Of a stretch of DNA of 64,000 nucleotides, positions 20,320 to 60,910 are shown piece by piece; position 1 is the stretch's first letter, and each line of letters opens with the position of its first letter. The stretch is from Antedon mediterranea. Lineage: Eukaryota > Animalia > Echinodermata. The notes beneath the pieces are model-generated. The model made no database searches. It worked only from the letters and a program-made list of their open reading frames with translations, and was not told where the DNA came from. Location of the stretch: positions 12,524,001-12,588,000 of the forward strand of contig NC_092672.1 of the NCBI RefSeq assembly GCF_964355755.1. Direction: 5' to 3'. Made by a program: the position numbers and the translations under genes.

Positions 20320-20390
20320 TCAGTCGCCATTGTTTAAACCTTGCCATCATCTTCGTTTTTCATTTCAAGCACAAGATGGCGTACTACGAC

Positions 20391-25424: not shown

Positions 25425-28400
25425 CTGTAAAAAAGAAAACCGAAAACAATTACATTCAGATTTTCAAGTTAGAAATTGTAATAATCATATTGCGCAATAT
25501 GATGAATACTATCAATTGAATACACGCATTATTTGGTACACAGTGTATATCGTTGAACACCATGGACATAAACACATTCAATTCACTAGTATCATTCCTA
25601 TTGTGGTGCGTTGGTATATTAGTTACCTGGATAAATTGGTGATGGCTCCACACTACTTCTGCCTGGAAATGAAATGATAATAAATGATGTTATATTTTAA
25701 TTTTAATTCTTCAAAAGCTGTGTAGATATACTTATTATCATTACATAGATATTCACGTACATTTGTCACTGAAATATATCATTGTTATTTATTTGTAGGT
25801 TAAATATATATATAAGTAATATAGTTAGTTGTCATAAAATACATATTTATTTTGTCATTAAACACAATATTGATGAATGTGTAATCCCACCTTCCAAAAA
25901 TAAACGCTTTAAGCGATCAGTTTTCATCGACTTCTCACCACATGGAACAGTGCTGTTGTCTTCTTTTAAACACTCTTCCAGATCGTGTAAATGAATGTGC
26001 TCTGGATAACAGGCGATACACAACACACGTAGGTTGTAACCGATTCCTTCATTAGTTTTCAGCACAGCCTTTAGTTGAAGCTGTAAATAGCTTAGTATCT
26101 AAAACAAAAAATACATAATCAATAAGTTTGAATGAAACGTTTCTTATAACTGCATTCAGATAAGCTATTACATTACAATATTAGAATCTTTACCTCAATG
26201 CATAAGCTCGGTTTTAGTTCAAATATTTCCTCTGTATTATTTTCGTCAACTTTAGTTCGACGGGATATTTCAAGCTGTTAAAAAAGATGTATTGATTTGT
26301 TGAATTATTTAACATATTCTATCTCACACTGCTTACGTCTACGTATATTCATTACTGTACATTTATTTGGTGAATATAATGTATCATTTAATTTTTAGAA
26401 TTTTTCAGAGAATTACAAATACCCGTTGGGCAACCTAGATACCAAAACATTAAAAACTGTAACACAAAATAGCCTCTATATTAATTTTAGTTATATTATT
26501 ATAAAATTATTTGTTGTTTTATTGTCTAAGTTACTTTTATTCTAAGAATCTTAAATGAATACATATTATTAGAATACATAAATTATGTTGTAATCACAGC
26601 TTGTATTATTATCCATCTGTGTAGTCATGATCAGACGTACTTAGCTCTCACTACTGCTAAAACTGATTGAATGTTTAGGAGACCAAATTTCTACATGCAG
26701 AAAATGATCGGAAATAATTGATAATTTGATATTTGTTTAAAATCTTTCTAAAGACATGCTAGCTAATCAACAGAAATAATAAATATTCAAATTATTGTAA
26801 ATAATGAGTTAAATAAATGTTCGTACCTTCAACGCATGCTTGTTTTCATTTTGATGGTCGATTTTCACGGGACCTAAACGAACCTCATGATCTCCAAAGT
26901 CAAAATCACTACGATTTTGAAATACAACTGGGTCCCGTCCTCTACCTTTAAGCTCCACCAGGTTTAGAAATGCAACAACTAATGTATTGTACACAGAATC
27001 AGGAAGGAAGTCCGTAGGTGTAAGATAAAGTGATACCTTCTGTTTCTTGTCCATTTCAACTTTAAGGCTTTCATCCTTAATTTTCATCCGACATGGAACC
27101 AGGAACATCCGGTTATCTTCGCTTTCATGCTAATGTAAAATAAGTATTTGTAGTGTTATGAACAATATAATATATAACATCGAACTATATTACTAAAATT
27201 ATCTCAGATTTAGTTAAGAGCAAATTTGTTCAACTTACTTCTAATTTCTCATAGAGCAAACCAAATGTTTTCATCACTTCAGTAAAAATATCAAAACGAT
27301 TTGGATCTTCTTCTAATTCTCTTTTCCATAAATGCCGTAGCAATTTTTCCTCAAGGATCCCTTCCTTGTTAAGCTTTTTCCAAAGATTTCTTAATTGTTT
27401 CTGTTTCCAAATAATAAATACAAAAACTAATTTGTAAACGTATTCATACAACCACAATACATGTTGACAACAAACAACTAACTAAAAGTAATCATGTATC
27501 CACATGTCAATATTTTAAATCCGTTTTGTGACAATTATTTTGCTGCTAACCTTATCTACTTACCACTTCAATAGTTGGTTCAACTACTGTGATCACTTTT
27601 GTCACCATTTCAATCATCATGTAAAGATTTGTTATCACTGTGTTTCTTAATTTCTTGTTAGTACTTGAATACATGATAACTCCAATGTCATTCAGGTACG
27701 CTATGGCAGTGAATAGCCCATCTTTTGAAATTCCACATTCAGTGCCGATTTTAGATGTCTAATGCAAATTAATAACAAAATAGAATTTATTGAATTTGGT
27801 GAATAAATATTGATATTTTCCTTTAAAATAATTGTAAACAGCTTATTGTTGAATAAAACATAATTTTATCTAACATTCTTCCTTTTGACTAGACATTTTA
27901 GAAATCGCATTGTCAAGAAGGCCTATTTCTGGTTAAATGTAACTGTTTCCTTGCATTTTTTATATTTAATTTACATTATCTTTGTTCAGTTTTTTTAGAA
28001 TGATAACTAGCTTTTATTAACATTACGAAATAAACAATTCAATGTTTGATTTCATTAATAATTTTAATTGCTCATGTTTTGCAGGAACAACTGAAACAAA
28101 AAAAATAGTACAATAATGAAGACTTCCAAATACTAAAAAATGACAAGACATCTATATTTACTTTTGTAATATTAATTCACATCACTGGCTCAACAAAGAA
28201 ATTGGCAACATTACATTGTAGACAGAAATGTGACCTTCAAATTATGACGTTATAAATTATAATTGTTACCGTATAGTACACTATTTTTAATAAGATAATA
28301 AATTATTTTGTACTAGCGTTCATCTCTATATGTGTTTTATAAATCTGTGTTTACAGTTGTGACAACATAAAATAAACGGTTATACATTAAAAACAAAAGC

Positions 28401-31400
28401 TTACCTCAGTAAAAGTAATACACAGTGTTGTTTTTCCAATTTTTTGCAACTGTTCTTGCAAATCCACCCATTTTAATGGAACACTTCTCACCATGGCCTT
28501 CATATAACGACCAACGTTTCTCCTAAGTTGTTTTATACCTTCATGCGATTTTACAGTGTTATCCACCATGTACATCTCACGATCTACATGGTCGGCATAT
28601 GGCATTCCTTCCATTTTTTCAAACATTTTACGAAACTTATCCTCCACTTCCTTTAATAAAAAGAGTTTTCATAATTACAAGCTATAACAACAACAAGAAT
28701 GTAATTATTCTTACAAACTGTTATTTCATATTCTGATTTGAATAAATCTAACAGATAATTAAACTTAATACACGATTTAATTCGTAGGCTACGCTATTTA
28801 AATTTCATCACTGTATCGGTTTTAAATAATTCAGCATTAATCCCGTCCGTGTATACCACATACTGTACCGTTGCAAAATTGTAAGCTTATTTAATGTTAA
28901 TGTACGTCTGTTACCTTGATCCAATTTTTAGATTTTGACTTTTTAATAAATGTGTCCATATGTGTAGCAACCAAACAGATAGGAGGTGACTCGATGATCT
29001 TGCCATCAATATTAATGGGACTTCCTGGACCATGTTGTGCCACAGTATGTTCATAAATGGACCTTATCCAGAACATATTCATTTCCAAATTGGTCATTCC
29101 TAGTGTCCTCTAAAATCACAAATAAAATGCAATCTTATAAAGTAAGCTAAAATATTCTCAATAACAAAGATATGCATATTTAATAAAGTGTATTCGAGCA
29201 AATAAGTAGGTACTGTAGGCACTTACTGTAATTGAATCTCGTGGATTAGCTGGTTCATCCAAGTTATCACACGAATTAAACGCTACACAGTAGGATACTC
29301 GATTTGTGAGGAAAAACTAAACAAAATACAATTAATAATAATAACTTTTTTTATACTCCAGGTCATTCATTAGGGATGTGTTAATTGATACATGTAATAA
29401 TAGATTAGTGAAAATGTTATACCACAACACAATGTCGTACTGTCACTATGAGCAAATCTCTTTATTTTTTAATAATCATTTAACATATGAAACAAAAACT
29501 ATGAACAAAAGAAAAAATACATAAATCAAATAAAATTTAAAATATAATTTAAAGGTCTGTTTAATAAAATAGATACGTAAACAAGCAAATCAAGGCCCTT
29601 TTTTTAAACATGCACCAATAAATTTATTTTTAAATTTTTAAGACATTTTTAAGTAATAGCAAACAACAAAATAGGAACATACCCTATGCGTTATGTAGTA
29701 GTCCAGTTGACCTGCGTAGTCCCATATAGTAGTTACGTCACTTGGAATACTTTCTGAATCATCACTTTTTACAAATAATTTCCTAATCCTTTTCATCGAC
29801 CAACTATCTTTCTGTCTTCGCTTTTTTATTTTAGCAACAACTTTTCTTTGAATGGATTCGGGAATTGTCAGATTTTCTTTTAGTTGACTCTCTAAATTCA
29901 AATAATGACTACAAATCAATGGGGTGTGTGTACATTAGATAGGGATATGGATAGATGGACTGGTCTGATAATGTTGTGAGTAGACATAATGAATGTTAAA
30001 ATGGATAAAAAAAGTTTATACAATAAATAAATACATCAGTCAGGATGATTAAAGAATTGAACGAGCAGCGAATAAATACATTTATTTGTTTGCAACAAGA
30101 AAAGAAATCTCACTCTTCCCTGGTTGGACAAACTTTTTGAGAACAAAATTTTCCAGAATGTTTCATAACAATGGTATAATGCCATACATATTATTTTATC
30201 AAATATAAAGAAAACCAAATAATGAGTCCAACCCTTTCTTGCCGATTCCACTGCCAATGACGTGTAATCAGACTCTCTGGAATCAAATGTAGAAGCCTCG
30301 CCTAAAGAAAAATCGTTGAAAGAAAGAAATATTCTCTGGGTTTGCTTGAATCTGGAGTTTTCTGTCGGCGAAAATGTATAACTAAAAATGATTATTTGTG
30401 TCATGTTGCACTCATAACGAATACAATGTTATATTATTATATACTAGAGCAGTGAAAATCATGTATAGACCTGTATAAACTCCACAGTTTAACAAGTACT
30501 ACTTTATATTAATAATAATGAAACAATAATATAAACAACACTCCTATGAAGTTATAGTGTGCTAATTTTGTGTTTCTTTCAGTATCAGCATGTATAATAC
30601 ACTACATTAATTTATTATTTACATTAAATTGGTTTATTTACTTTTCTTAAGAAAATAAATTATATTTTAGATATTGTCATGCAATTAATTTGTTGTTTAT
30701 TAATTCGTGCGATGACTTGTTAGGCCTATTAGTAAAGTGATTGTATGCGAAACGACCACACTTTATTTATGCAAAATGATCGTCAAAAATATTTTAAAAA
30801 ATAATCAAACCTTCCACTGAAGACACAGAGTCAGAAGATATAGAACATTCCAAATCAGATATTGAAGGTGCTGCACCTTGTAAATGGAATTTGGTTTCAG
30901 TTGACGTTTGTTTTTCCATATTTGCTGTGATGTGTTCAGGCGTTTTCGGGGATGTTCCTGCAATTCATTATAATATATTTTTGATACAATATAATAGACT
31001 GTATAACATTTCACTTTTATGTATGTTTCAATACTCTATGAGTGCATCTTAACTTGATTATTATCACCAATACAGTTTGTTTAGAATAATAAAAATACCC
31101 TTGTAATAGATATTATAGTAGATATTCATCATACCTATTTTTACTGGATCCAAAGAAGAGATTGCTGATGATTCCAGTTGGGAATCAGATTTAGATGTTG
31201 ACATATCTGAACTTCCTTCACCATCATCCATTTCTTCCTTTATTAACTGTGTTGCAAGTTTTTCTGCAAGTGCATCTTCCCGTATTTTCTTGTTGAGCTC
31301 CATAACTGTTTAAAAAAAAAAGGTGAAATAAGATTGTACGATAAACATCATAGAGATAAATTAAAATACTAAAATTAGAGAAATGAGATACATCATCAAA

Positions 31401-34400
31401 TCATCATCATCACCTGTAAAATACAATAAATATGTAGGTAATTTATGTAATTATAGACCAAAATGCATTTTTAAGTATTGAATAAAAATATTATTTCCAG
31501 TGTACCTTACCGGTACGTTTTTACCTTTATTATGATACTAATTAATCTCTATACACAAATTGGCCAAAGCAGGCAATTATGCGTTTGTTGAAGGAAGAAG
31601 AAAGAGAGAGTTTCTCTCTTTTGTGGGGACAGCTCACTTTGAACGAACAGTTAATGTGTTATTTGGTATGGTTGAATTCTTCTTTTCAAACTTACCGTCG
31701 ATATCTTCCTTCTTCCACTTGTCACACTCTTTTCCAATTGCTTGAAACAATGTCGTTGTGATAGCAATACCATCAGTAGATGGTTCGTTGGATTTAAATC
31801 TATAATAATGAATAATGAACTCAAAAAGGTCGGATTTAATGAAAGGAGAATGTATCCAATAGTTCATCTTAAAATATTAATATATTTAAAATAAAAACGA
31901 AGTGAAGATCACAAGTAAATAAGCATATGCTTCACACTTCTTGGGGATATTTAAAACAAACTGAAACTTTCAGCAGCAGAATTTGCATAAACATCACCGT
32001 TAATGTCACCATCATCGTCATTATCATCATAATTGCCATTATAATCATCATCATTATTATTATTCGAAAAGGAATGAAAACCTGTTACTCAAAGACGAAA
32101 CTTCAGGTATCAACTATTTAAAATAAGAACCTCACTAATACCAATTTTTGTATTTTATTGAATAATTACATATCAAAATACTCAGCACCAAACTTATTAT
32201 AAACAAGAAATCCAAACAACTCGTTAAATGTTGTCAATTGCATTAGAGATACTTATGAAAAAAGATAAAGTGTTTTAAATGGTTCAAAGAACAAAAGATT
32301 GATTTTAATATATTTTTTGATAAGGAATGTTTGCCATGACTATTATAGAGAACATGAATACAGGATTAGAAATAAATGAGAACTTAATCTACTGTAATGG
32401 TAAAAACACCATTCAAATTGTATTATAAATACTTTATATTGATGAAGATCATGTATTTTTTTATTGGTGCATCTTATAAAATAACTTTGTTTTTGTGTTA
32501 CCTTTGTCCAAGCATGGCCTTTACACAGCTAGTTTTTCCAGCACCTTCTTTCCCGAGAAACATACATCTTGAATTTACAACTGCAATCTCACCATTTTCA
32601 AGTTCATTTTGAAATGATCTAATTGCGCTCTTACCTCTAGCTAATATTTCAACTGGAACTAAATTGCGATTAAAATAAATGTAAAATATACAAAAACAAA
32701 TGTACAAATACAAATATTTTACATTTAAGAATCAATTCAAAGCCATAGTTTTAAAACTGTCATTATGAGAGCTCATCTTCTTCACATTCATACAGTTCAA
32801 AGGTTCAGTACAATATTCATTGTGTGTCATTAGTAATACACTGTACTTTAATATTCATGATGCAAAACTCAATCAAAGTGTATTAATGAATACAAACTTA
32901 CTGTCAAGTAACTTCAATATCGTATTTTTCTTTTCTTTGGAGATATCACTATTATCCTTCAAAGCAGATGCTGGTGTTTGTCCTCGCTATACAAAAAATT
33001 GTATTAAAGTATTATCCACTGTTACTTTATTAATCTATATATACATTTACGTAAGGGAAAAAATCGGTAAATCGCCTCTTACTTCTAGAATTTTTATTTG
33101 ATGGTATATATAGTTGGTTCGTACTTTCGGTACTGATTTTAACCACCTTATGTAACTCTGTTTACTAATTAAATTGAGTTAGATAATTATTTATTGACGA
33201 TTAAAGCGAATTTACGATTTGCTCCCAATAGAGGTGTTTTTCATAAATTGTTTTACATTATATAAACACATATACAAATAAACTTTATTATTGACAGTTG
33301 CTTCTCAACGTTTTTATTAATTAATAATGTAATTACAAAAAAATATAAACGTCGTAGTGATGTATCGTTACATGTACTGTACTGTACTTCAATCGACTAT
33401 GACGGTGACAGTTTCAACAAAGTATTAAATCGCAATGTTTTAATGTATTTAGTGATATATTATTTGTAAAACATGAAAACAATTAATATTTCGTTACTAA
33501 ATGGATAAAGAATATATTAACAAATTGTTCCTCTTTGCACTCATCCTCTTTTCCATCCCTCAACCCTAATGTTACATACAAAACACAAATTAAGTTTGTT
33601 TAAATTTGACTCAAACAATTGGTCTCATTTTGTGACAAGTTTCTCTTTCGGAAGTAATTCACAGGGTGCTAATTTTAGTTGAGTACATAAATCACCGTTT
33701 TTATTTATTCGTTATTGTAAATAAATGACATTGTCCTGTGGTACGTACATTTGAAATCGCCAGTTTTTAGTCGCGTGGACGCGACTCAATAGTTCACTAT
33801 GTCGGTCGGTCGGTCTGTCTGTCGGTCCGGTATCACTATGCGTTTTATCGCTTTTCTGTACTTTTTGAACTGTTTTGATGTTTTTTCTGAGAGCATGCGA
33901 CTTATGGCTGTTGGCCTTGTTTAACGCTGAAATTACTATGTATTCGAGAAGCATCTGTGGACGACCTAGATGCGAGAGAAGCGAGTAAACTAGTAATTTA
34001 CATAATCCGGATTGTAATAAACACATGCATAAGTTTAAAATAGTGTGCACACGTTAATATGACACAATCTGAGTACCTTTGGACTAACAAACAAAATAGT
34101 AACTGCTCTACCATTTAATGTTTATTGTGATTGAATACACTTTAAAAATCTCTCAAAAGCCACATTTTGAATTTTTAATTTTCTAAATTGTTCTGTCTAT
34201 GTAAAGCGCATTAATGCTTTCAGCATAATGCGCAATATCAAGCACCAGTTATTATTATTATTATTAAAAATGCTATTAAAAAAAATATTATAAAAGAATA
34301 GTCGATACTGTATTAAATGTACATGTTAATTATCGCATCTATGAGAATTTACCACCACTAGCAGTAACCCGTGCTCCGCGTGGTCTTTGTCTGCTTTAAT

Positions 34401-37400
34401 ATATGATTATATACTAATTCGCATGGGATGAGTAAGTATCATATAAGCGCACTCTTCCCTCATAAAAAGCCATGGATGTTGTTATACACCAAGTATTCCT
34501 TCACTTTTAAGTAACCATGAGCTACAAAATGAAAGCAATACTGGATATGGGACTTTACGAAAATGGAAAAATGGTGCTGTGTGAATACCATGATGCGCGC
34601 AATAACATAACGAAAGTATGTTAATGAAGTATTGGAATAAATCAACACAAAAAGTAGTCGAAATTTGACGATGCGCTCGGACACAAACTATTACTTTTTG
34701 GGTGTATTTTTTCTTTGAGACGTCAAATTACTGCTATTGTTTGCTTTTTTTAGTGTTTATCCTTAAAATTCAGCAAAGTGACATAGCCTATCGTGTGCGG
34801 CCCATCAATAAACATCAGTGTGCCAAATGTGAGCACGTACCGTTCGGTGGCTTTGGAAGAGATACATAAAATTAAAAAAATTTAGTAGCATTAATATTTA
34901 GATGCTAACATAATGTCTTTAAACAATTGGCGCCCTTTCTGATATTCTTTGGCTCCATCAAGATGATGATTATTGTGTATTAGTTAACAAAAGATTTGTA
35001 ATATTAGTTAAGTTAATAACATACTCCTAATCAAAATAAGAGTATACCTTGGATATAGGCGTACAGTAGTGGTTTGCTTAATAAGCAAAATTTAAAAATG
35101 CAAATGCAATGTTGCTGCATTAATTTACGGTACCTTGTTTCTTGCTTTAAGTGATGCTCCGTGGGCTATGAGACTGTTCACTATTTCTAAATTACCACCA
35201 AACCTAACGTGTCCATGTAGCGGTGTGTTTCCCTCCTGGAGAGCAGAAAGTTTTATGTATTATAATATACATTTTACACTTTAGATACTAGAACTAAGGT
35301 TTAAACAAATTTAATATTGTATTCGTTCTGCTCCTACAATTATAACAAGCAATTAACTACTACATCTAATTATTGTATATTTTGCTTCTCGTGGGCTACT
35401 CGTCTTTCAGTAGGTAACTTCGATGATCATCCCTGCCAAATCGCCAGGACTTGTCTGGCGGGTGTAGGCGATTATACAAGTACAATTATTTAAACTCTGG
35501 AGGCAACTGGAAATGCGTCTGGCAGGTGGACAGCCGGGAATGACAGCCGGGGTGTGAAGCATATGTTTATCGATTATAGATTGAAAGTTCGATGATAAAT
35601 CAGAATTAGGGTAAAAAATTGACTTCAGTAATGTAAACGGGGTCCCATCGTTTTATTACTTTTTATGAAATCATACACATAAGCGACATTATTGGTTCGG
35701 CATCATAGTCCGCAAGGTCTATGGTCAAAAAATTGTTAAGTAAATAGAGTATTTTGTTATTTATCTACGATAGACAACAGTATAACAGTACTGTAAATAA
35801 TACAACTAGTTGATTTTAATTGGGACGTGGAGAGGTGTTAGCAATGAACATAATTTTGAAAGTATTGGTATTAACGTGACAGCTATATGATGCTTAAAAT
35901 ACTTTAAACTTATATTTACTTTGATAAATAAATATGACTTTTCACAATTAAAATAAATTAAACAACTCCAAGGTTTGTTTATACGGGAGCTTATTTAGAT
36001 TAACTTATATTGCTGACTAATACGAATAATAACGTAAATGATTTTTTAAATTATTTTAAAAGAGTAATTTACATTGTTTGTTATATAGATACAGACGGGT
36101 AAGCACTGAACACATTTTAAAGTATTAATTTAGCGTCTTGTTCAATCTAAAACGCTACAGCTACACGATTTTTAATATATTTTAAATTATACTTAATTTG
36201 CTTTGATAATAACTATAGGCTACACTTGTTCACAATGAAAAGCACATTAAACGAATCTATGGGATTTGCTTATAATGGGACATAATTTAAATTAACTTTG
36301 TAAAAAAGAGTTTTTTTGTGTAAAAGAGTAATTTACATTGTCTGTTGCTGTGACTGATGCTCCGTGAGCTATGATACTGTTCAATATCTCTACATTACCA
36401 TCGGCAAACGTAACGTGTTTATGTAGCGGTGTGCTTCCAAGCTGATGGAAAGAAGAAAATTAGATTATTAAACTTGAGGCATTTTTTAAGAATATATGTA
36501 TTATTATATTATAATATTTATCCTTTTCTACATTCATTTTCTAATTAATTAAGAGTGAATGTAAATTATATAGAAAAACCTATTAAGAAAATAATAAAAC
36601 TTGTTGATTTTAATTATTATTATAAATACAGAAGGGTTAGCACTGAACACATTTTAAAAGTATTGATTTAGCGTCTTGTTCAATCTAAAACCCTACAGCT
36701 ACACGATTTTCAATACATTTTAAATTGTATTTTTGCTTTGATAATATAAACTATACATTTTTTCCAAGAAAAACACATTAAACGAATCTAGAGTTTACTT
36801 ATAACAGGAGACAATTTAAATTCACTTGTAGTGTTAACTAATACGAATAATTACGTTATTGATTTTTAAATCATTGTAAAAGAGTAATTTACATTGTTTG
36901 TTGCTGAGATTGATGCTCCATGAGCTATAAAACTGTTCACTATCTCTACATTACCACGGCCACACTCAACGTGTCCATGTAGCGGTGTGTTTCCTCTCTG
37001 GAAAGAAGAAAGTTAGATTAAACTTGACGCATTTTGTTAAGAATACAGGTATTTATTACATATTTATCCTTTTCTACATTCATTTTCTAATTCATTTTCT
37101 AAGTCCTTTCGCCGACTGCAAAAGAACACAGCGCCATAAGTACTCATTTTTCTAAATTAAAATTATGTGTACTTAATGCTCGATCCACGCAACGCAAAGC
37201 CTCAAGAAAAGGAGTGGAGCAAGTATCTGGAAATGGTGAGACGAGTACTAAATCCACAGAAAAGCATAGGTCTATAGAAAAAGCACATCTTAATTTTGGC
37301 ATTCTAAATGCACGTTCACTGCGTAACAAGTGTGATGAATTTGTGGACTTAGTTGTTAGCTATAATCTAGATGTAGTGGCGGTGTCTGAAACCTGGTTAA

Positions 37401-40400
37401 GACCAGATGATGATTTTGTGATTGGAGATTTAACTCCACTAGGATATCGCTTTGTGCATGTCCCTAGGGTGGACAAAACTGGGGGTGGTGTTGGAATTCT
37501 GTCTAAGTCAAGCCTAGTTGTTAACTTGAAAACGGATGTACATACATATGCATCATTTGAGGCTATACATGTGCATATTACGTCTAACTCGAAATCTCTT
37601 CGTTTAGTTAACATATATCGACCACCAACCTTGTCTGTTACAGAGTTCCTAAATGATTTTGAAAAAATGTTGTTTGACTTTATTCTCTTTTCGTCTGAAA
37701 TTGTTTTCTGCGGAGACTTTAATATCCATATGGATAATAAAAAAAATGTGGCAGCGGATAGATTTAAAACACTGCTTAGATCGTTTGGTCTCCAGCAGCA
37801 TATAAATGAACCCACACACTGTAGTGGGCACTGCCTCGACCTTATCATCACTAGAGATGATCTACTTCTCTCGGATGTAAAGATACACCCTGGCCTGTCA
37901 GATCATTTTGCCATATTTTGCAAGTTTGATCTTAAACGGCCCACAACACACAAAAACTGTAAGAAAAAGTCGCAACCTAAAACAAATTGATATTGAGAAA
38001 TTCACAAATGACATTAAAGCCTGTGTGTCTAAAGCCCCTTTCTCACAGATGTGTCTGCAATATACCGGTACAGTGCTGGCGTCGTGCTGGTATCGTTACC
38101 GGCATATACCCATTCTCATCGGACTATCGTGCCGGAAATATAACCGGTATATACCGGCTTTCTGTGAGAAAGGAGTCGGGCATATTCGGCCAATAAAAAG
38201 TCTCTGACAAAATAATTATTGAGGGCGTCCTTTATTGTTATTATTTTTGTCTAGGGATATATGGCGGCGAATGTTAAGTTACAGATTATTATCTTCCTTT
38301 ATAGCATATTTATGCAATAAATGCTATGTACAGTATATTGTGCATATATTATACAGGTACAGCAATTAATTAGTCGTCATCGGCAATCTGTAAAACACCT
38401 TAGAAGGCTGTACAATTTACAAGGCGACGAAGGGTCAGGCTAGTTAGGCACCAACAAAGAGCTATATGGCCTAGGCCTGCTATAGATTATGCTACAAATT
38501 TCTTCTTGTCCCTCTCTCTCTCTTATCTCATTATCCCTCCAGTTCGACATTATTATTGTTAATTGAATTGAATCGGCGCCAAAGTGATACAACCATACAC
38601 TTTACCGCGCAAGGTGTCTGAAGCCTCGACAGGGAACCCGGGAATATAACGGCGTTACGTTCTCACAGAATGCCCGTCTGGCATTGCGGGGAATATCCCT
38701 AGAATATTACTAGGTCTAAAGCAGGTCATGTCGATGCCGGCATGGTGCCGGCATGATGCCGAGACGACCCGTTCTCACAGAAATCCATACCGGCATGGTA
38801 ATGGTATATTCCCGCAATATTCCTGGCACTCAGCTCTGTGAGAAAGGGGCTTAATATAACTGATTTAAGTGTAATTCTTGAAGACAGTGTAGAAAGCTAT
38901 TCTGATCTCAGAGCTGTACTTGATTTACATGCGCCAGTTCAGAACAAAACAATTAGGCAAAAGGACGCTAAACCGTGGTATACCGATGAAATTCGATCTG
39001 AAAGGAAAGTACGTCGTCAACTTGAACGTAAATGGATGAAATCAAAGCTTCCTAAGGATAGACAGGAATACTGTGTTCAAAGATGCGTTGTAAATGGACT
39101 GATTGAAAAGGCCAAGACGCGGTATTACTCTAGTCTGGTTAGTGACTGCACAGGTGATCAAAAGAAACTTTTCAATATAGTAAATAAACTTTTACATCAC
39201 TCCAAGTCATCGGTCCTTCCTTCGTCTGTCTCCGATGAAGCTCTTGCTGAAAGATTTTCTGTGTTTTTTGTAAATAAAATTAAATCAATTCGTGATTCAC
39301 TAGAAAATGAAAATACTGGCGAAGTTATAACTGCTTCTGATAAATGTAATATATCTTATGGTTTAACTAGGTCTATACGGTTTTCTCAGTTCGAACCTGC
39401 AAGTGATGAGGAAATTTTAAAAATTGTCAAAAATTCTCCCTCTAAATCATGTGCACTTGACCCGGTACCAACTTCACTGATAAAGAAATGTACTTCTGCA
39501 TTTATTCCATTAATCACACATATTGTTAATAAGTCTCTTGAAAGTGGTTCTTTCCCAGAGTCTCTAAAAGTCACCCATGTTCGACCCACATTGAAAAAAA
39601 CAGGTCTAGATCCCGAGATTCTGAAAAACTACAGACCTATCTCGAATCTTAGTTTTTTAGGAAAAATAATTGAGAAGGTTGTTTCTAAACGGATTTTGTC
39701 GCATGTACAAAAACATGGCCTACTTGATCCGTATCAATCTGCCTACAAAGCGCATCACAGTACTGAAACGGCATTACTTCGTGTAAATAATGACATCCTA
39801 CGTGGGATGGATGATGGAAAGCTAACTGCTCTAGTATTATTAGATTTAAGTGCAGCATTTGATACGGTTGATCATTCTGTGTTGCTAAATAGACTCAGTA
39901 CTTATATTGGTATTGAAGGAAATGCACTTGATTGGTGTCGGTCATATTTGGAAAAACGACCTCAACACGTATGTATTGGTGATGCTATTTCAAAAGCTTC
40001 TTTTCTAAACTTTTCGGTACCACAAGGATCTGTTCTTGGGCCGCAATGGTTTTACTATTTATTTACACCCGATACGGGATATCATAAGTAAATATGATCT
40101 GTGCTATCATGTTTATGCTGATGATACTCAGATTTATATTTCTTTTAAACCTACTATGAAACACAGTGACATTTCTTTGGAATTGCTCCAACATTGTATC
40201 TATGAATTGCGTGTCTGGATGAAAAACAACTTTCTTAAATTAAATGATGAAAAAACAGAATTTGTTCTCTTTGGATCAAAACAGCAGTTGGAAAAACTGC
40301 CACCAAGCTTTATTCACATTGGTGAAACCCAAATGGACCCGGCTAGGCAGGTTAGAAATCTTGGGGTTGAAATGGATGTGGGTATGACTATGATTTCTCA

Positions 40401-43400
40401 TATCTCAAAAACTATTTCTGCGTCGTCTTTTCACTTGCGAAACATTCGAAGGATTCGTAAGTTTATAAATGAGACAGCAGCTAAACAACTTGTTCATGCT
40501 TTTGTCACTTCACGACTAGATATGGGAAACTCTTTGCTATACGGGCTACCACAAAAACAACTCCACAGGCTCCAACTGATTCAAAATACAGCGGCACGAG
40601 TTGTTAAAAAATTACCAAGATATGGACACATATCAAACACTTTGGAAATATTGCATTGGCTCCCTGTTAGGTACCGCATTGTTTTTAAAATATTACTTTT
40701 TGTTTTTAAGTCTATAAATGGCATGGCTCCTGAATATATTTCTGACATGCTTAGGCTGTATGTTCCCGGACGTAATCTGCGCTCTAGTGACTCGCTGCTT
40801 CTACATCAGCCTAAGTCTCACCACTCATGGGGTGACAGAGCATTCTCCGTTACTGCTCCTCGTCTGTGGAATGCTCTACCGAGCTCTATAAGATTTTGCA
40901 AAACTGTTGATACTTTTAAAAAATTATTAAAAACACATTTATTCATTAAGGCATATGGAAATCATGAGGTTTCTTAAAGTTGTTTAGACTTAGAATTGTT
41001 TTGTATACCTTTTCCTGGCCAGCATTATCTTTGGGGTGCCTCTGTCTTGGTTGTTGTCTCTGAGCACCCGGTCGTCTGTGGCAAGGCAAATGTGTATCCT
41101 GCTCCTTTGTTTGGTCACCTAGGTAGGGGTCCGGGACCGCGACAGAATAACAACGGATGGGGACCCTCCAAAGAAATTGCATTTTATTTGCCAGGAATTT
41201 GTATGATTTATTTCTTTTTTATTTTTAAATGCGCCTTGAGCACTCTGGAGTGGTATGTGCGCTATAAAAATCTTATTATTATTATTATTCCCCCCCTCCT
41301 AAAACGCTAATCGTCGTTAGACATTGCGCGTCTCACTTGTGTTCGCCACTCAGTACGTTTTTGAGCTAGCATGTGTATAGGTCCGCGTGTGAAAAGTTCT
41401 GTTTCCTTTTTTATGTTTGCCATCCATGTTGTTTTTCTATACATACAACATTAATTATTAAAATAAAGACGGGCTATGCAATGAACAGAGTTATTAATTT
41501 AGCGTCTTGTTCAATCTAAAATGCTACAGCTACACGATGTTTAATATATTTTAAATTGTATTTTTGCTTTGATAATAGGCCTAACTATACATTTTTCAAA
41601 TGAAATACACATTATACGAACCTAGGGTTTGTTTATAACGGGAGACAATTTAAATTAACTTGCAGTGTTAACTAATACGAGTAATTACGTTATTGATTTT
41701 TAAATCATTGTAAATGAGTAATTTACATTGTTTGTTGCTGTAACTGATGCTCGGTGAGCTATGAGACTGTTCACTATCTCTACCTCACCATAGCCAAAAT
41801 AAACGTGTTGATGTAGCGGTGTGTTTCCATCCTGGAAAGAAGAAAGTTAGATTAAACTTGACGCATTTTTTTTCAAGAATACAGGTATTATTATTATTAT
41901 TACATATTTTTCTTTTCTATATTCATTTTCTAATTCATTGAGAGTGACTGTAAATTATATAGAAATACTTGGTATTAAGAAATAATACAACTTGCTGATT
42001 TTAACTATTATAATACAGATGGGTTAGCAATGAACATATTTTAAAAGTATTAATTTAGCGTCTTGTTCGATCTAAAACGCTACAGGTATACGATTTTTAG
42101 TATATTTTCAATTGTATTTTTGCTTTGATAATAACTATACATTTTTTCCAATGAAAAACATATTAAACGAATCTAGTGGTTACTTATGCAGTAGTAGAAA
42201 AGTATTAATTTCGGTTCTTGTTAAATCCAAAATGCTACAGCTACACGATTTTCAATATAATTGTATTTTTGCTTTGATAATAACTATACATTTTCCAATG
42301 AAAAACACATTAAACGAATCTAAGGTTTGCTTATAACGGGAGATAATGTCAATTAACTTGTAGTGTTAACTAATACAAATAATTAATGCTTTTTAAATCA
42401 TTGTAAAAGAGTAATTTACATTGTTTGTTGCTTTGATTGATGCTCCGTGAGCAATGAGACTGTTCACTATCTCTACAATACCATCGCCAAGCGTAACGTG
42501 TTTATGTAGCGGTGTGTTTCCCTCCTGGAAAGAAGAAAGTTAGATTAAACTTGACGCATTTTTTTTAAGAATAAATGTATTATTATATTAAATATTTTTC
42601 TTTTCTATATTCATTTTCTAATTCATTAAGAGTGACTGTAAATTATATAGAAAGACCTGGTATTAAGAAAATAATACAACTTGCTGATTTTAATTATTAT
42701 AATACAGAGGGGTTAGCACTGAACACATTTTAAAAGTATTAATTTAGCGTCTTGTTTGATCTAAAACGCTACAGCTATACGATTTTCAATATACTTTAAA
42801 TTGTATTTTTGCTTTGATAATAACTAAACATTTTTCAAATGAAAAACACATTAAACAAATCTAGGATTTGCTTATAACGGGAGATAATACAAATTAATTT
42901 GTAGTGTTAACTAATACAGTACAAATAATTACGTTAATGATTTTTAAACAACATTGTATAAGAGTAATTTACATTGTTTGTTGCTGTGATTGATGCTCCG
43001 TGAGCTATAAGACTGTTCACTATCTCTACATTACCATCGCCAAGCGTAACATGTCTATGTAGCGGTGTGTTTCCATCCTGGAAAGAAGAAAGTTAGATTA
43101 AACTTGACGCTTGCCAACGTCGCATAATCCATCTGTTTTTACGATCCATTGTTGGGTTTACGCTTCCGAAAACTTACTTCAAGTCAAGTGCATCTACAGT
43201 AACAGTTATTATATTACCATAATGCCGTCTCTGTTATTAATCTTTCTCTTTTATTTTCCAGTTATCATGTATATGCATGTTAAACATTTTATTTGTTGCT
43301 TGTATGTATTCTAAAAGATACTAATAAATAGATAATATAGATGAACTATTTTAGATATTATTTGTTCAATTTATGATCCATTGGGATTCGCAGCTCCCGT

Positions 43401-46400
43401 ACTTTACATGAATGAACGTTTTACAGGCTAGGTGCAAGCAGAATTTACACTAGACGAACCGTTAGCATCTGAATTGTTGGTTGGTTGGTTAATTTCTTTC
43501 CTTTTGAATGATCCAAGAAACAATTATTATTATGGTCTTTGGCCGATATAATATACATGTGCCGGTGCCAACCCGAGGTAAGGTAAATAAAGAAACACAC
43601 TATGTATATGACATATACGGAGTATAGGGTCTCACAATTCGGCTAGCCTCTAGTAGGCCTAGGGCCTAGGCCTAGGCTAGGGGAGGGCTAAAATGCTCGT
43701 TAACTATTAAATAACATAAACAAGTAACAAAATCTGTCTCACCACATTTGGCCAGTGTCATAACAAACTTCTTGGAAGAGAGATGAGGATCTCAAAATCA
43801 CAATAAATGCGTTAAAATTAAATCAAACAACAATAACAAACTACTATTTATCAACAGTGAGATTTAAATCGGTCAGTCTAATTACCGAAAACAACCGAAA
43901 ACAACCCTAAACAACCGAAAACAACCACAAACAACGGAAAACAACCATAAACAACCGAAAACAAACCGAAAACAAAATAAAATAATCTAAATACCGAAAA
44001 CAAATTTGTATAATATTTTTTAAATGTCGCCCTCTATTGATGGGTGTTTCTAAATCTAAGACCATAACAGAGACAAAACCGCGCGCGCAAAAGCCAAGGA
44101 AGACCCTACGATGGTAGTGTGCACAAAATACAACTAAAAATCGTGCAATCAATCAACGATAACATCGCATTTACTTACAGAATCTATAAAAATATTTTAA
44201 TTTTAGTCTTTCGATTTTTGATCCAGAAACCAGCGCATTGCTCCTACAATTTGTGAATATGTTAATCCATAGTATAGAAAGTAAATTGACTATGGTTAAT
44301 CATGATCGATTTAATTATAGATTTTCAAAGATAATTATACAAAGATACTAGGGACTATAAAGTATACATAAAACAAGCTCACTATAAAGGATTCACAATA
44401 AAATCTATTCAGTAAAATTACTGTAGTCGAGTAAATAACGTTTTTATCCTTAATCGCTTCAGTATTCACTTAATAAGTGACGAAAACCGGGGACGAAAAC
44501 GCAAAGTTAGGTAAAATCATGCTTTGTTTTTGAAAAGACTAAAAACGAAATGTGTTTATAGATTTTGTAAGTAAATGTAATCTACGGTGTATTGAATTTG
44601 TACGATTTTGAGTTGTATTTTGTGCACACTACCATTTCTTAGGGTCTTCCATGACTTTTGCGCCTCTGTAAGGTCTTAGCTTTAGAAACACCCATCAATA
44701 GAGGGCGACATTAAAAAAAATATTATACAAAATTTGTTTTCGGTATTTAGATTTTTTAAATTTTTTTTCGGTTTGTTTTCGGTTTGTTTTCGGTTATTTG
44801 TGGTTGTTTTCGGTTATTTTCGGTTGTTTTCAGTTGTTTTCGGTAATTAGACTGACCCGAATTAAATGCATGCTTGAGTTGAGAGCAATCAAAACCATCA
44901 ACAACAAAAATGTATCTCGCCTCTTTCCCTCTCTAGTTAGCTTGCCGTTAAATAATTATAGAGGGGGTAGTTTCAATCAACTTTGGCAGACGGCAAACAT
45001 ACAATGTATAGAGTGCGTTTAAATATTTTCTGAGTTTAGTAATGAGATCAGTATTTGTAGTAGACATAAGGACAATATATTTTAATTTAGATGGATTATT
45101 TGTGTAAGAGGAACTTAGTTCTACTATCTGAATAAATTAAAGGGAATTCATCTTCAATTGATTGTAGAGAGCATAATTTGCATAGTCTATCATTTCTATT
45201 AGGCCTAATACGATTCCATCTTCATTTTTCTAATTATAATATTCCTAGTCTTAGTTTAGTCACAATGTGTCTATGTTTGTAATTTTAATTAAGTATTCTT
45301 CCATTCCAACATAATTTATATTGAATGCGTGTGAAATATTGGAGCTTATAGAGAGTGTAACCTATTATCTCATAGAATTGTTGTCGTACCAATAAGCCTC
45401 GCCTTTGTTTAAATTTTGAAATAAAAAATATTTTTGACCTGTTGAGCATGCCATGTTTCCAAATCCATTTATACATAATAAGTGTTACACCATTGACCCA
45501 AATCGCTCGTTTTGTTGCGCTTTTCTATGTTGAAATTCATAAAATTGTTTAATGAATTTTTCATAATCTATTTGGTTTAGGCGCCCTACTCTCAGCTACT
45601 AACGAATTAAATTATACTTGGAGTTTGGATAGGGAATCATCGACATTCTCCTCTCATTACATCACTTGGAGCAGAATTTTCTATTCTTAAAAGATATTTT
45701 ATTCTAAATTCGAAATATAATCCAAGTGGTATGAAGACACTGTTCATCTGCTGGAAAACTGGAAAGTCAGTCGATGCTACAAACCACAATGGTTCAGAGA
45801 AGTCAAGCAGGCAGAAATTCATTATATCAGATGCTTGTGAAGTAGTATGTGGTCAATGCACGTATCTGCTAAAAATCTAAAAAGATATCAAGTTTATGTA
45901 GCTACCCGGGTACAAAAAATCAGCTATGCAACTTCCATAGAAAACATCTTCTAATCCGAGTGATATAGTCAGTAGAACCGTGCATGCTACAGTAATCAAT
46001 TGATTTCAGATACCGGATGGGTGAGTAGTTCTACATTTCTTCACCAGGTAGGTCTTACCAAAAAAGGCGGTTGGCCGATTAAATTGATGACGAATCAAGT
46101 AAAGTTGTTGCTTCAGAAGTAAAATATATTCGCTTATTCCACACTAGTGTAGATAAGACTGTTTTTCAGTATGGTTTTATTAACAGACAGATAAAATGAA
46201 CTATAAATCACATTAAATGTATTGAATGTTCCCCTTAAGCCAACACGTAGCAATGTATAATTGTTAGATAGGCCTATCAATGGTAAAACTTAACAGTGAT
46301 ATAATACAAAAAAAGAGATAAAATAATCTAATATGAACAGATCTGTGTAAACATTGCAGGGAGCAATGTAACGCTCATCTGGAATAATTTGCATGAAATA

Positions 46401-49400
46401 ACATGTGGCGTATATTAGAAATAAAATCTCCCTAGCTAGTGCAGTTAGCTGAGACGATACTAGCGTATAATCCATAGGTCTTATTGCGATTTCTACATGT
46501 TATGTCATAGGCTACTATTGAGAAGTTATATTATACAGATATTGACTGTTTAGAGGTTAAATATAAGATTTGACATCCCCGAGGGAATGATATTAAGTTC
46601 GAGGGAATATATATTTCCCGAGAACTTAATATCATTCCCGAGGGGATGTCAAATCTTATATTTAACCGATATAAAAGGCAATATCTGTTATATTATATAG
46701 CCAAGAACAAGTCTGCTGGGTTGGGTGAAGCTAGGCTAGGCCTCCTATGTATTTGTATTGTATTTAAACAAGCCTGCCTAGACACCTTACCTTGCGAAGA
46801 ATAATATACAGATAATTACTAATTAATGATTCCTTGGCAATAAAATATTCACTTAGGCCTAGGTCGTTTAAATTAACAGGAGAATTTCCATCAATAAGCC
46901 TATTAATAATAATATTAAATCAGGTAGGCCGAATAAACAATTTGTCTTCTTCTGTTCGAGGAGCCGAATCAACGGATGTTCAGCGCGTACTAGTTACTAG
47001 GTTACTACCGTGAGTATTGACCAATCACAAACTGTGTTTCATCACATTTAGGGTGGACTAAAAACAAATGAGGGCGCTATGTATGCATAGCTTAAATAGT
47101 TTAGAAGATTAATTTCTTCAAGCAACTTCCGTGGCGCAGCGGTTGAAGCGTTGTCTTGCGATGGAGTGGCAATTCCACCCGAGTTCAAGATCGAGTAGAT
47201 GACTTTTGTTTATTTATCGGCAAACGCGAGTGTTGCCACATGAAAATTACACAGTCAATATCATCGAACTCGAGAATGTTTATGTTTAATGACAGGGGAC
47301 ACGATAATTACGCAAAAATTACACAGTCAATATCATCGTTCTCGAGGATACATATATACGATTTACGATCCTCGCAGCGGTAGTCATGTGATGCAGTTTC
47401 AACCAATCACGTTCGCGTATTTACATAGGCTATGTAATCTATATATAAATTTACGTAAGGGCAAAATTCGGTAAATCGCGCTTTACTTCTAGAATTTTTA
47501 CTCGATGGTATATAAAGTTGGTTCGTACTTTCGGTACTGATTTTAACCACCTGATGTACCCTGTTTACTACTTAAATTAAGTTAGATAATTAGTTATTGA
47601 CGATTAAAACGAATTTAGGTTCAACGATTTGCTCCAAATAGGGGTGTTTTCCGATCGTGGTATACACTGTCTAATGGATGTCCATCTTGAAAAATACCCG
47701 CCACTAAAATGCGAGGATGCTTCGCATTTTCCTATCTCCTCCTACGATAATTGTTTTTAATAGCTGAAAACCGGTTGAACAGCATCATAATGTTGAAGAC
47801 AGGCCGATTTTCTTTAAAAAAATACTATTTTGATAGATTTAATATACGATTATACAAATGTATTGATTTGCGATGAATGGAACATCCCAATCTCTCAGTC
47901 TGCCAGAGTTTGGTTTAACACAAGTAGGTAAATTTATGAGCCCTTGGTTTAACACATACGGTAGGTAAATATATGGGCCCTTTGAGAATAAACTTGCAAT
48001 ACTTTGACAATACTGTAAATACCAACTATTTTTGGTCCTCATTTGAATCGAACATTTCTTACTGTGAATGTTCGTATACTGTTAGATGTAATTATAAAAA
48101 TATATACAAATAAACTTTATTACTGAGATTGTGGATAGGCTCTACTGTTAGATATAAACACATTATTATATACAAATAAACTTTATACTGACAGTTCGTT
48201 CTCAACGTTTATATTAATTAATAATTACCAAAAATATAAACGTCGTAGTGGTGTACCATGACATGTACTTTAATATTTCAATCGATTATGACAGTGACAG
48301 TTTTAACAAAGTATTACGGTAAATCGCAAATGTTTTACTGTATTTAGAGTATACTATTTATAGGCCTATAAAACATTGAAAAAATAGTTCGTTACTGAGT
48401 GGATAAAGAATATATTTAAAAATTGTTCCTCTGTGTACTTATCCGCTTTCCCATCCCTCAACCCTAATGTTACATACAAAACACAAATTGGGTTTCTTTA
48501 AATGAGTCCAAATAAAAAATCTGGACTCATTTTGTGATAAGTTTCTCCTTCGGAAGTAATTCCCAGGGTGCTAATTTTAGTTGACTACATAAAACATCGT
48601 GTCTATTTATTCGTTTCTGTAAACGACAATGTATTATAGTCCTGCGGTATTTGAAATCGCCAGTTTTGTTACGCTGAAATTACTGTGTATTCGAGAACCA
48701 TCTGTGGGCACGACCTATAGTATAATAAATTATCTCTATTGTGGCTTGATTACACGCCTTCCGTTTTTTTTTCTTTTACGGGTTATCTCAACTCAAATAA
48801 GTGTAGTGAGGCCGCAGTTATAGTCTATTAGTAGAGTAGATTGTGTCTGTTATTGTTTATTAATAAATGTTTTCATACCCATTAATCAACAGTTTAAAAA
48901 AGGGTTCTTGTTTTTCACCCACTTAATTTCACCGTAAACGTTTTATATCATATTTCTTTTAGTATAAAACACTTTGCAAAGATTTAGTAACTTTTTGCAG
49001 GGTGTATTATTTCATAAATAAGTCATATTCACTTGACAAGCTAGTATAACTTATAGAAAAGATCATATTCAACGCAATTAGAAGTACGGTATCTCTGAAG
49101 ACCTTTTTGAAGCTCCGGTTAATCCTTATGAGAAAGCTCATACCGAACGTTGTATGCATATTAATCCGCTGAGTCAGTTTACTGTATGTCTATTAATCCG
49201 CTGGATTCAGTGTTCAGTGTGAATAATATCCTTTTAAAAATATATGGATTGTATAATTATATATATATAGTTTCTATACCTTATCTACGGAGTTCACAAG
49301 ATGTGGATATGTTTTACATATTTCTTCAATTTCTTCCAAGCCTGTATAGCTTGATACAGCTCTTAGTAATACTTTTCTGAGAAAAAAAAAGAATATAAAA

Positions 49401-52400
49401 ATGCATCATGGCAAGAATATTCGGTCGATAATGTTAATATGTTTATTGTTCATGTTTCTAAATAATAATAAATACACTTTTCGTTGAACTATTTATAATA
49501 TTAAAAGTTTGTTGGATATAAAATGTAAAGCTTTCTTCTCCATAAAAAAAAATGCAGTCCTCCACAGTTTGAAGAAATAACTTACTCATCCATTGAAAAA
49601 ATGCACTCTGTAGTTGCCAATCATTCAGTGGCTGCTGAAAAATGAAACTCAACATTTAAGCATATATTAATAAATAAAATTAATTTACCTGTTAATTACG
49701 TAAAATTGTTGTTTTTTGTTTGTTTTATTTAAACACAAATTATTTTAATTCTCTGTTGGAGCTAAACAGTATAATTATATTAAGTCTTAAAAATCTTAAA
49801 AAACATTATGGTTTTGAGCTAATTTTTATTGTATTACACTTTATTTGTAGGAATATTTTCTGGGCAATTCCATGGTCACTCGCATTACACATTACAGTCA
49901 TTTTTGTTAGTCTAAGCTTTGTACTTTCTATACTAATTGGATTTTTAAGTCAATGTTTTATATGAACATACTTTAGGTGCAAGTCTTTAATAAAATACTT
50001 TAAAAAAAATTGTATGTCTTTTACTTCGACAATGACGCCATTGCGAAATTCTGTCACACGCATTACACAAAAAGGACACAACAAAAATTTGATTAGATTT
50101 GATAAGAACGTGTCCTTAAACTAAAAATATATGAATCAAAAGATCTTATATTTTTAATTGCTATACTTTTAAAGTATAAAATAGGATAATAAAAAAATTC
50201 AACATTACACAGATTTTAAAAATATTTGACATTTTAACAAAAAAGTCCTGTCACTCGCATTACTGTCACTCGCATTACCGTAAGAAATGAACTTAGTATT
50301 TACTAAACAAAGCAGATTTTAGAACGAAGAAAAGTATACAATAATTAAATAATGCAACATTAAACCACTCAAAGGATTTTATATCAATTTTCAAGTAAAA
50401 ACTTTTATTTCAACTCATTTGGATGAAGTTCTAAAGGACATCATCTATTTTTAACACTAACAGAACATCTTGTTTTTTTATAAACACAGTAACACTTTAA
50501 CGGTCACTAAAAATGAAAATAGAAAATTCAAACAGCCATTTTACAAATTATGGAACTCAAAGTTCTTCGCAAACCAGCATCAAGCCTTCTTTTTGCCCTG
50601 GTAGTGGCTTTAGCAAAAGCTATAGCACTTCTAAAAGGTGATGGCCCGTCTGATGCCAAAGCAGCCTTCTTTGCTCTGAACTTAGCCACACGTTTTCTAT
50701 TAGCAACTTTAAGAGCATCAATCTTCTGCTTCTTCAAAGCTGGTGGCAGAGCTAGAATTTTCTCTTTTCTTTCACTTTTTTACTTCTTTTCGAAATTTCA
50801 TTTTGTTTGTTTCTGTATGAGGTGTATTTTCCCTCGGCTTTCAGTTTTTCTAGGTACTTTCTTTGTCGTTCGGCCATTTCTAAAAGCAGGATGCAAATGT
50901 GAATGATATTTTAAAATTATTTTTAAATAATAATAGTGCTTTAGACCTGGTGGTGTAAAATATGCCTAGTAAATAATAATATATAAATAAATTATTATAG
51001 CCTAGGCCTATGCAGTGTTTTCAAATTATAGAATTTGAAATAATTAACACTAACAATATAAGAAAAAAAAACTTAAAAATTGTGATTAAATAAAAATGTA
51101 TACTTATTCTTATCTTCACAAAAGATTGTACCAAATTTGATAAATTTTTTATTTAATGAGCTCTTATAATGATTGATTTTTCAAATGATTTAACTGCAAA
51201 AAGGTCATTGCTAGGGATTGTGCTGCCCTCAACAAACCTAATGCTATAATTATTATACTGTACTGCCTCCAAATAAGGGCTAAATCACACATTGTATTAT
51301 GAAATTAATGTATATACTAATTCTGGGACTAATTCATAACTAATTATAGATTAATTACTATTTTACTTTACAAAAAAAAGAGTTTTAGTAATGTCACTCG
51401 CATTACATTGTCCATTTTTTAACGTCACTCGCATTACATGTCACTCGCATTTCACTTGTCAATGTCTCAACAATTTTGTATTTACGGGGATTTTTTATTT
51501 TTATTTATCAAATTTTAATTGTTCAAAGTAGTATAGCTAAATTATAAAATTTCATTAAAAAAAAATTATCATCACGATGGTATAAAAAAAAAAAAAATTT
51601 TTGTTGTCACTCGCATTACATACCCTAATATATAACAGAATATATATATATATGGGATATTCAACATTTGTAGTTATATCATATTTTCCATACATCTTAA
51701 GTGTACTATTACTTAGAAATGTTACTTTATAAATATTGCTTTGTTGGGGAAATAATAATCAGTTAACGTAATTACCTATTTTTCACACCTAAAAAAAAAT
51801 ATATATTCAACATTGAATAAACGTAATTTTTTGGCTGCAAAAATTCATAAATGAATTGAAAAAGTTAAAAACCTAGTTCCCACATATTCAAAGAGTAACA
51901 TAAACACAAATTTTGAGCTGACTAATTAATTTGAATTTTTTTGGTCATGTCCATGTTTGCATGGAATTGCCCTTCTTAGTTTTCCTAGCTTCTACAGTAG
52001 GAAGGCTAAGCATATGCTGTTCCACCAAAGTCAAGCGATTTGGAAGGGCCCACGCCACGAGACAGGGGATGATTGGGAGAGAGATACTGCCGGTCGTTGT
52101 CTTTGCGTGCGCAAGGGTGTGTAACTAATAAAACGGCTATTTTATGCTCTAGCAAACACAGGATATTCGTCAAAATAGTTAAATTGCTATTATTTAATAC
52201 ATTTGATCATATCAATAAAAATAAAATAAATTTAACTTAAAATAAATTTAACAATTCAATATTCAATTATCAATTGTCTAAAAAGAAAAAGAATCAATAA
52301 AATTTAATTAAGAAATACACAAGAATAAATATAAACGTACGGCATACAGTATATATTCTTGAGTTTAGATCCATTGTTAGTTTACCATTATTATTATATT

Positions 52401-60805: not shown

Positions 60806-60910
60806 CTGGAAAGAAGAAAGTTAGTATTATTATATTTCATATTTATCCTTTTCTACATTAATTTTCTAATTCATTAAGAGTGAATGTAAATTATATAGAA
60901 ATACCTGGTA

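Follow-up and report, generated by a model that had tools for sequence, protein, structure and literature searches.

In the crinoid Antedon mediterranea, we found a minus-strand gene whose ankyrin repeats are built from duplicated in-frame exons; the codons predicted to contact the target are likely under diversifying selection, and the product is likely an intracellular pathogen sensor. The gene is located in a 64,000-nucleotide stretch of contig NC_092672.1 (assembly GCF_964355755.1, positions 12,524,001 to 12,588,000 of the forward strand), referred to here as the window, and coordinates are counted from its first base. It is intact, with 25 exons joined at canonical splice sites into one open frame of 1,259 amino acids (49593 to 24895), and the order of domains in the model is N-cap, six ankyrin repeats, C-cap, Roc, COR, and a death-effector-domain (DED) region. 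Statistically, a ratio of nonsynonymous to synonymous substitution (omega) above 1 is supported at ankyrin codons 1, 8, 11, and 14 and, more weakly, at codon 12.

According to this reading, unequal crossing-over and gene conversion would copy and homogenize the exon cassettes in the germline, and selection would retain new residues in helix 1 and in the turn between helices 1 and 2, giving new recognition specificities. Binding of a ligand to the ankyrin arm may then switch the Roc-COR unit, and the DEDs may recruit a caspase or an adaptor, with signaling in innate defense or in self/non-self recognition. The ligand and the immune role of the gene are what we infer from this arrangement.

Variable positions of the ankyrin exons

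A motif scan of the window returned eight hits, seven of which are minus-strand ankyrin exons. All seven are bounded by AG and GT and have a length of 105 nt, or 102 nt in the case of the last one. Each exon encodes one ankyrin repeat in phase 0-0, and six such exons belong to the gene, namely, e2 (42973 to 43077; 35 codons), e3 (42420 to 42524; identical to residues 71 to 105 of the RefSeq model XP_071944626.1, termed P0024), e4 (41727 to 41831), e5 (36893 to 36997), e6 (36337 to 36441), and the terminal-type e7 (35134 to 35235), which has 34 codons, a loop that is one codon shorter, and an unrelated downstream intron. The remaining exon, e1 (60701 to 60805), has intact splice sites and is not part of the gene model; since it is located 11 kb upstream of the start codon and its cassette intron (60505 to 60911 and 62237 to 62405) is interrupted and truncated, we consider it an orphan or part of something outside the window. 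A preliminary description of the window had placed all seven exons between 36337 and 43077, which is correct for five of them, the other two being e1 and e7. A small palindrome around codons 8 to 11, spotted by eye in e1, was absent from the other exons.

The repeats contain the TPLH motif, and Pfam Ank scored above its cut-off in both exons scanned; Pfam scans of the exons and paralogues gave no hit to a leucine-rich repeat (LRR) family; the repeats are ankyrins. Compared with e2, they share 74 to 89% amino acid identity, with 18 of 35 columns invariant. Repeat exons with different loop lengths comprise 34 (e7), 35, or 36 codons, the last in exons of the paralogues P0002 and P0026. The duplicated unit consists of exon plus intron, is 77 to 89% identical between copies, and recurs at a spacing of 553 to 693 bp where uninterrupted. 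As each duplication copies the intron along with the exon, the intron serves as an internal neutral control for measuring selection.

The sequence readings of the preliminary description were exact for all exons: codon 8 reads GAA/AGA/AAA/CAA/GGA/AAA/GGA, codon 14 reads CGT/GAT/GAT/TAT/CGT/GAT, and the encoded residues are Q, T, T, Y, E, T, R at codon 11; F, L, L, F, C, F, F at codon 12; and D, D, E, D, R, L, E at codon 1. The scaffold codons ACA CCG CTA CAT are invariant, silent sites included.

Alignment to the sequences of designed ankyrin repeat proteins (DARPins) equated exon codons 1, 8, 11, and 12 with ankyrin consensus positions 3, 10, 13, and 14. Codon 14 falls within a two-residue insertion after the first glycine, in the helix 1-helix 2 turn, which DARPins lack. 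The proposal that the hypervariable codons map to the ankyrin binding face therefore holds for the first four codons, whereas codon 14 belongs to a loop insertion. Only three of the top five codons here belong to the classic DARPin set (positions 2, 3, 5, 13, 14, and 33). A library described in PMC3308923 randomizes six surface positions (consensus 2, 3, 5, 10, 13, and 14), a set that includes four of our five highest-scoring codons (p = 0.0014). The overlap with DARPin positions claimed earlier was thus partial: positions 3, 10, 13, and 14 of this set vary here, whereas 2 and 5 are nearly invariant.

In an alignment-based AlphaFold2 model, helix 1 spans codons 5 to 11, the turn codons 12 to 16, and helix 2 codons 17 to 25, with a predicted local distance difference test (pLDDT) score of about 86 to 98 over the repeats; the Roc part of the model is unreliable. 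The top Foldseek hits of the model were DARPins and ankyrins. Clustering on one surface is a statement about alignment to consensus positions rather than about measured geometry. A single-sequence fold was discarded as a low-confidence, beta-rich artefact (pLDDT 43).

Evidence for diversifying selection

Site models were run with our own GY94 code and naive empirical Bayes on the seven exons, which are all those with full codon data. Across four tree/frequency settings, the comparison of M2a with M1a gave a doubled log-likelihood difference (2dL) of 16.1, 15.3, 22.7, and 20.7, rejecting neutrality each time with p between 5e-4 and 1e-5; M8 versus M7, the comparison proposed in the preliminary description, gave 17.3. 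The omega of the selected class was 4.8 to 7.6. Posterior probabilities were at least 0.98 for codons 1, 8, 11, and 14 in all four settings, and 0.79 to 0.94 for codon 12. The post hoc choice of sites was avoided in a second test, in which codons 35, 1, 3, 8, 11, and 12, corresponding to the six consensus positions randomized in the PMC3308923 library, were fixed in advance. Omega was 4.3 to 5.0 on this face versus 0.6 to 0.7 elsewhere (2dL 15 to 17, 1 df, p <=1e-4, three trees). As a control, codons of the convex helix, a set of our own choice based on ankyrin structure, gave an omega of 0 on the exon tree, and the star-tree fits were unusable (negative 2dL).

Direct counts point in the same direction. 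The five named codons, which were chosen post hoc, had a proportion of nonsynonymous differences (pN) of 0.54, versus 0.066 for the other 30, and helix 2 codons 18, 21, 22, 25, and 26 showed no amino acid change at all. In the six internal cassettes, the proportion of synonymous differences in exons (pS, 0.113) was close to the divergence of the introns (p = 0.126). Because the two are equal, the identity at silent sites reflects recent duplication. The comparison with introns suggested in the preliminary description thus favors selection as far as pN at the five codons exceeds intron divergence, but the most variable intron triplets vary just as much, as detailed below.

To widen the sample, contigs from five of the nine sequencing runs with part of the region were compared (X1, X5, X6, X8, and X9). 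X1, possibly the source of the assembly, does not count as independent support; the RNA status of X8 is a guess, and X9 was judged to be RNA only from exon-to-exon joints and empty intron flanks. Contig depth was taken neither as copy number nor as expression, and a depth dip over codons 8 to 14 was not used as evidence. On exon e2, 40 variant rows were listed and 26 further rows fell outside the list; the rows are not independent events. Twenty-nine of the 40 fall in codons 8 to 14 (21 nt; 43036 to 43056, with codon 1 at 43075 to 43077), whereas 6 fall in the equally central codons 15 to 23 (27 nt). The amino acid differs from that of the e2 codon in 23 of the 29, codon 13 varies as well, and each of the four bases occurs at several of the first and second positions. 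X1 alone contributes about 20 different contigs across codon 9. Among the listed insertions and deletions, 8 of 10 are located in codons 11 to 14; grouped by matching depth, they appear to amount to a net change of 0, +3, or -3 bases and hence to keep the frame, in agreement with the lengths of e7 (34 codons) and of the 36-codon exons in P0002 and P0026.

The preliminary description had also stated that third positions are conserved at the hypervariable codons, and this claim was not supported. As the third base is the same in all six internal cassettes for 26 of the 35 codons, its constancy at codons 8 and 14 is to be expected; the chance that two given third positions are invariant is p ~0.55, and for four it is p ~0.30. 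Codons 1 and 11 vary at the third base in the window. Of the 29 variants listed for codons 8 to 14 in the other runs, seven affect the third position (two at codon 14 and none listed at codon 8), and third positions are therefore not conserved generally.

Several results weigh against selection on the binding face. The number of exons is small. Codons 16, 23, 30, and 31, which are off this face, reached posteriors of 0.88 to 0.98 on the exon tree and lower values on the others, and when all nine high-scoring sites are counted, only four are on the face (p = 0.027). The p values of the fixed-site test are those before any correction for recombination. In 62 simulations of a free-recombination null with five-codon blocks, none reached the seven-exon 2dL of 22.7, but three reached the six-exon value of 18.75 and one reached 22.0. 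Model-free neutral simulations gave p values of 0.02 to 0.09 at the intron rate and of 0.08 to 0.18 at 1.3 times this rate. The most variable of 142 sliding intron triplets had 1.67 differences per pair, a value close to those of codons 1 and 11 (1.8 and 1.73) and above that of codons 8 and 14 (1.27). Among the cassettes, 62 of 105 informative site pairs are incompatible, as recurrent mutation can also produce, so that the cassettes look recombined and mosaic. Silent rows of the other runs are commoner in codons 8 to 14 (6 in 7 codons) than in codons 15 to 23 (2 in 9), and in the paralogues P0009 and P0006, codon 8 is nearly constant. Because of the recombination null, the model-free p values, and the variable intron triplets, the window alone offers moderate, not overwhelming, support for selection. 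The concentration of amino acid change is beyond chance by codon models and less clearly so by model-free controls.

These results bear directly on an explanation by relaxed constraint and gene conversion, under which drift changes the young duplicated exons, surface and loop codons are free to take any residue, and a mosaic ancestry makes the likelihood tests look stronger than they are. Besides the site incompatibilities and the intron triplets, it is favored by the high omega off the face, an exon-wide pN/pS of 0.97 to 1.22, and the 2dL values of 18 to 22 that 4 of the 62 recombination runs produced; the division of the gene into two RefSeq models also fits, as do the orphan exon and the broken start of a paralogue nearby. 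However, relaxed constraint cannot raise pN four to five times above both pS and intron divergence, and the position set fixed from the literature still yields an omega of 4 to 5. Furthermore, the variants of four runs concentrate in these codons and are few in the equally central codons 15 to 23, the frame of the gene is intact, and the listed insertions and deletions appear to preserve it. We thus consider this account rather unlikely.

Codons 8 to 14 might alternatively be a local mutation hotspot, driven by slippage, multi-base changes, or short conversion tracts, in which case the pattern would reflect rate and not selection. That third-position variants, silent variants, and insertions and deletions are also concentrated there in the other runs agrees with this idea, although a selected multi-base change can carry silent changes with it. 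A hotspot is nevertheless very unlikely, given that 22 of the 29 variants affect first or second positions, that codons 9 and 10 within the patch have one variant row each, that the variable codon 1 is outside it, and that rate variation along the introns is small (gamma alpha 12).

Diversification within the individual, by a deaminase, by editing, or by retroelement-templated change, is highly improbable. Orphan cassettes could serve as donors in such a process, and AID/APOBEC-like genes have reportedly been found in echinoderms. Yet all 12 kinds of substitution occur in X1, X5, and X8, three of the four runs, and the variants in codons 8 to 14 comprise 11 transitions and 18 transversions; there is therefore no signature of a deaminase or of editing. 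Variants recur, moreover, across samples and both organism labels, and one divergent exon variant is shared by X5 and X9, which are different samples; this points to germline inheritance. In X5, X6, and X9, loose contig ends at 43012 to 43028 leave the exon midway into other sequence, which suggests that the second organism label includes broken copies or another divergent type of exon.

Taken together, the site models, the test on literature-fixed sites, and the wider contig sample support the proposal of diversifying selection on the predicted binding face.

Gene model, locus, and paralogues

The first coding exon (49586 to 49593, minus strand as for all exons of the gene) carries the start codon at 49593 and 8 coding nt, matching the start of P0024, and is followed in the gene model by the N-cap ankyrin exon (49280 to 49376), which ends in phase 0. 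Downstream of the cassettes are the C-cap ankyrin exon (32902 to 32986), the Roc GTPase exons (28915 to 32658; Pfam Roc on the near-identical paralogues P0002 and P0026), the COR exons (25891 to 28650; Pfam COR-A E 5.6e-17 on P0027), and the last exon with the DED region and the stop codon (24895 to 25424). The last exon matches A. mediterranea proteins, and its Pfam DED score (E 7e-08, 33 bits) is below the curated cut-off of 35.9. All four Roc motifs are present in the model (P-loop at residue 308, switch I at 332, DxxG at 565, and G4 at 656), the region being interrupted by a Ser-rich insert of roughly 220 amino acids, and COR follows directly. By its domains, the gene encodes a ROCO protein with a predicted GTP switch function.

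RefSeq divides the gene into two models. P0024 comprises the N-cap, e2 to e7, and the start of Roc, and in this truncated model alone Pfam did not reach Roc at E 1e-5; P0027 is 100% identical to our model over 719 amino acids (residues 541 to 1259). The split coincides with a splice donor at 30233 (GTTGGA) that is far from the consensus, and the exon ending there is about 15 codons shorter than in the paralogues P0002 and P0004. The join across this donor into one gene is probable and is backed by the full-length paralogues P0002, P0004, and P0026.

A broken, plus-strand non-LTR retrotransposon with an endonuclease and a reverse transcriptase occupies the e4-e5 intron (37103 to 41290). Its reverse transcriptase is split across two frames (38802 to 40977), an ATT-repeat tail is located near 41275 to 41290, and an element with terminal inverted repeats of ~17 to 20 bp (about 38030 to 38855) lies between endonuclease and reverse transcriptase. 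Elsewhere, the window contains a second, more decayed reverse transcriptase (22313 to 23480), a tandem array of ~90 copies of a 71-bp unit that are up to 99% alike (about 13774 to 20400), inverted-repeat elements (43862 to 44867, 54978 to 57101, and 46555 to 46667), and dispersed repeats that recur at 4872 to 6169, 7092 to 8347, 33030 to 33985, 47432 to 48717, and 53106 to 54240.

Paralogues were present on at least four different contigs of the same genome, and related proteins were found in Anneissia japonica. The start of a second paralogue is visible in the window, with an N-cap exon (4698 to 4791) and a first exon (6285 to 6292) on the minus strand; the donor of the latter reads AT, leading into an in-frame stop, and no ankyrin cassette exon follows this N-cap within the window. 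Among the other Antedon ROCO paralogues, P0005, P0006, P0009, P0010, and P0011 have ankyrins of different subtypes, a ZU5 domain, a doubled Roc-COR unit, or tandem proline-rich repeats ahead of the DED. P0009 is most variable at the equivalents of codons 11 and 12 and in the loop, of which its eight repeats show seven variants. A profile of this repeat type, searched against cluster representatives, brought up no close relative besides P0024; the four other hits inspected, of 150 listed, were unrelated ankyrin proteins. The unrelated protein P0029, of RNase L-like ankyrin-kinase-RNase layout, has 17 or more ankyrin repeats that are nearly identical but differ at consensus positions 1, 5, 9, 10, 13, and 14, a separate case of the same pattern. 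Because P0029 shows it too, the pattern of hypervariable, near-identical ankyrins is itself not rare.

Exon-to-exon joints, including one to the C-cap exon (in X8, from a terminal-type exon), were seen only in the putative RNA runs X8 and X9 and not in X1, X5, or X6. They come from short contigs of other individuals, in which skipping and regular splicing look alike. In a broader scenario, in-frame ankyrin cassettes from across the genome would form an interchangeable pool, exchanged among loci and joined in different combinations through exon skipping, and would provide each feather star with a natural DARPin-like repertoire of cytosolic receptors wired to a Roc-COR switch and death-effector domains, an unrecognized recognition system of invertebrate deuterostomes. 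We regard this extension as quite unlikely.

Comparison with known systems

Animal ROCO proteins with ankyrins include DAPK1 and LRRK1/2, which combine ankyrins with Roc-COR, and DAPK1 also has a death-fold domain. The Antedon gene differs from these in the lack of a kinase, the lineage-specific expansion, and the recently duplicated hypervariable repeats.

A closer parallel is provided by the LRR-ROCO genes of brown algae (Ectocarpus), which undergo exon shuffling and have been proposed to be immune receptors, with alternative splicing of repeat exons reported (PMC3341825 and PMC11378527). Both systems are built around a Roc-COR core, with each repeat encoded by its own exon between symmetric introns and with stray repeat exons nearby (here one orphan, 60701 to 60805). 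They also share clustered paralogues, broken copies, and positive selection at residues of the predicted ligand face, the margin here being reduced under recombination. In contrast, the repeats here are ankyrins and not LRRs, the introns are in phase 0 and not phase 2, the DED region is C-terminal, and the host is an animal. The Antedon gene works like the exon-shuffled algal group but is not a member of it, and we infer an independent origin.

Fungal NOD-like receptors (NLRs) with repeats of high internal conservation, such as the WD40 repeats of Podospora het-d/het-e and the ANK locus Pa_3_8560, likewise combine near-identical repeats with few hypervariable positions; five selected positions of the ANK repeats are mapped to inner helices and the hairpin/loop, and concerted evolution is described (PMC4986451 and PMC13449251). 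There, however, the architecture is NACHT/NB-ARC with an N-terminal effector, whereas it is Roc-COR with a C-terminal DED here, and the duplicated unit here includes the intron, so that silent and intron divergence can be compared. P0001 to P0008, P0024, P0026, and P0027 gave no NACHT/NB-ARC hit. Because its repeats are not LRRs and its switch is not NACHT/NB-ARC, the gene is outside both the brown algal and the fungal groups.

With DARPins and artificial libraries (PMC3308923), the repeats share a constant scaffold and variable consensus positions 3, 10, 13, and 14; they depart from them in the nearly fixed positions 2 and 5, in the length-variable two-residue insertion between the helices, which adds variable sites, and in a His-Val in helix 1 in place of the DARPin Ala-Ala. 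The natural DARPin library of the preliminary description is an analogy, for a pattern already known from the ankyrins of fungal NLRs (PMC4986451). Protein engineers could examine the variable insertion as a naturally enlarged form of the DARPin binding surface.

A literature search, with subscription papers and supplements outside its scope, found no account of ANK-Roc-COR-DED genes in crinoids, nor of animal hypervariable ankyrins encoded by one exon per repeat, although animal ANK-ROCO genes may be listed in the supplements of PMC3341825, PMC11378527, and PMC4986451; PMC6321704 does not mention ROCO, and PMC8195603 does so only in a reference. The variability is real and probably selected, and what is new is probably an animal, ankyrin version of a design known in brown algae and fungi. 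This would provide a testable animal case for the long-suspected immune role of ROCO proteins, and it would show that exon-per-repeat diversification of receptors, as in the algal LRR-ROCO genes, arose also with ankyrins, in an echinoderm.

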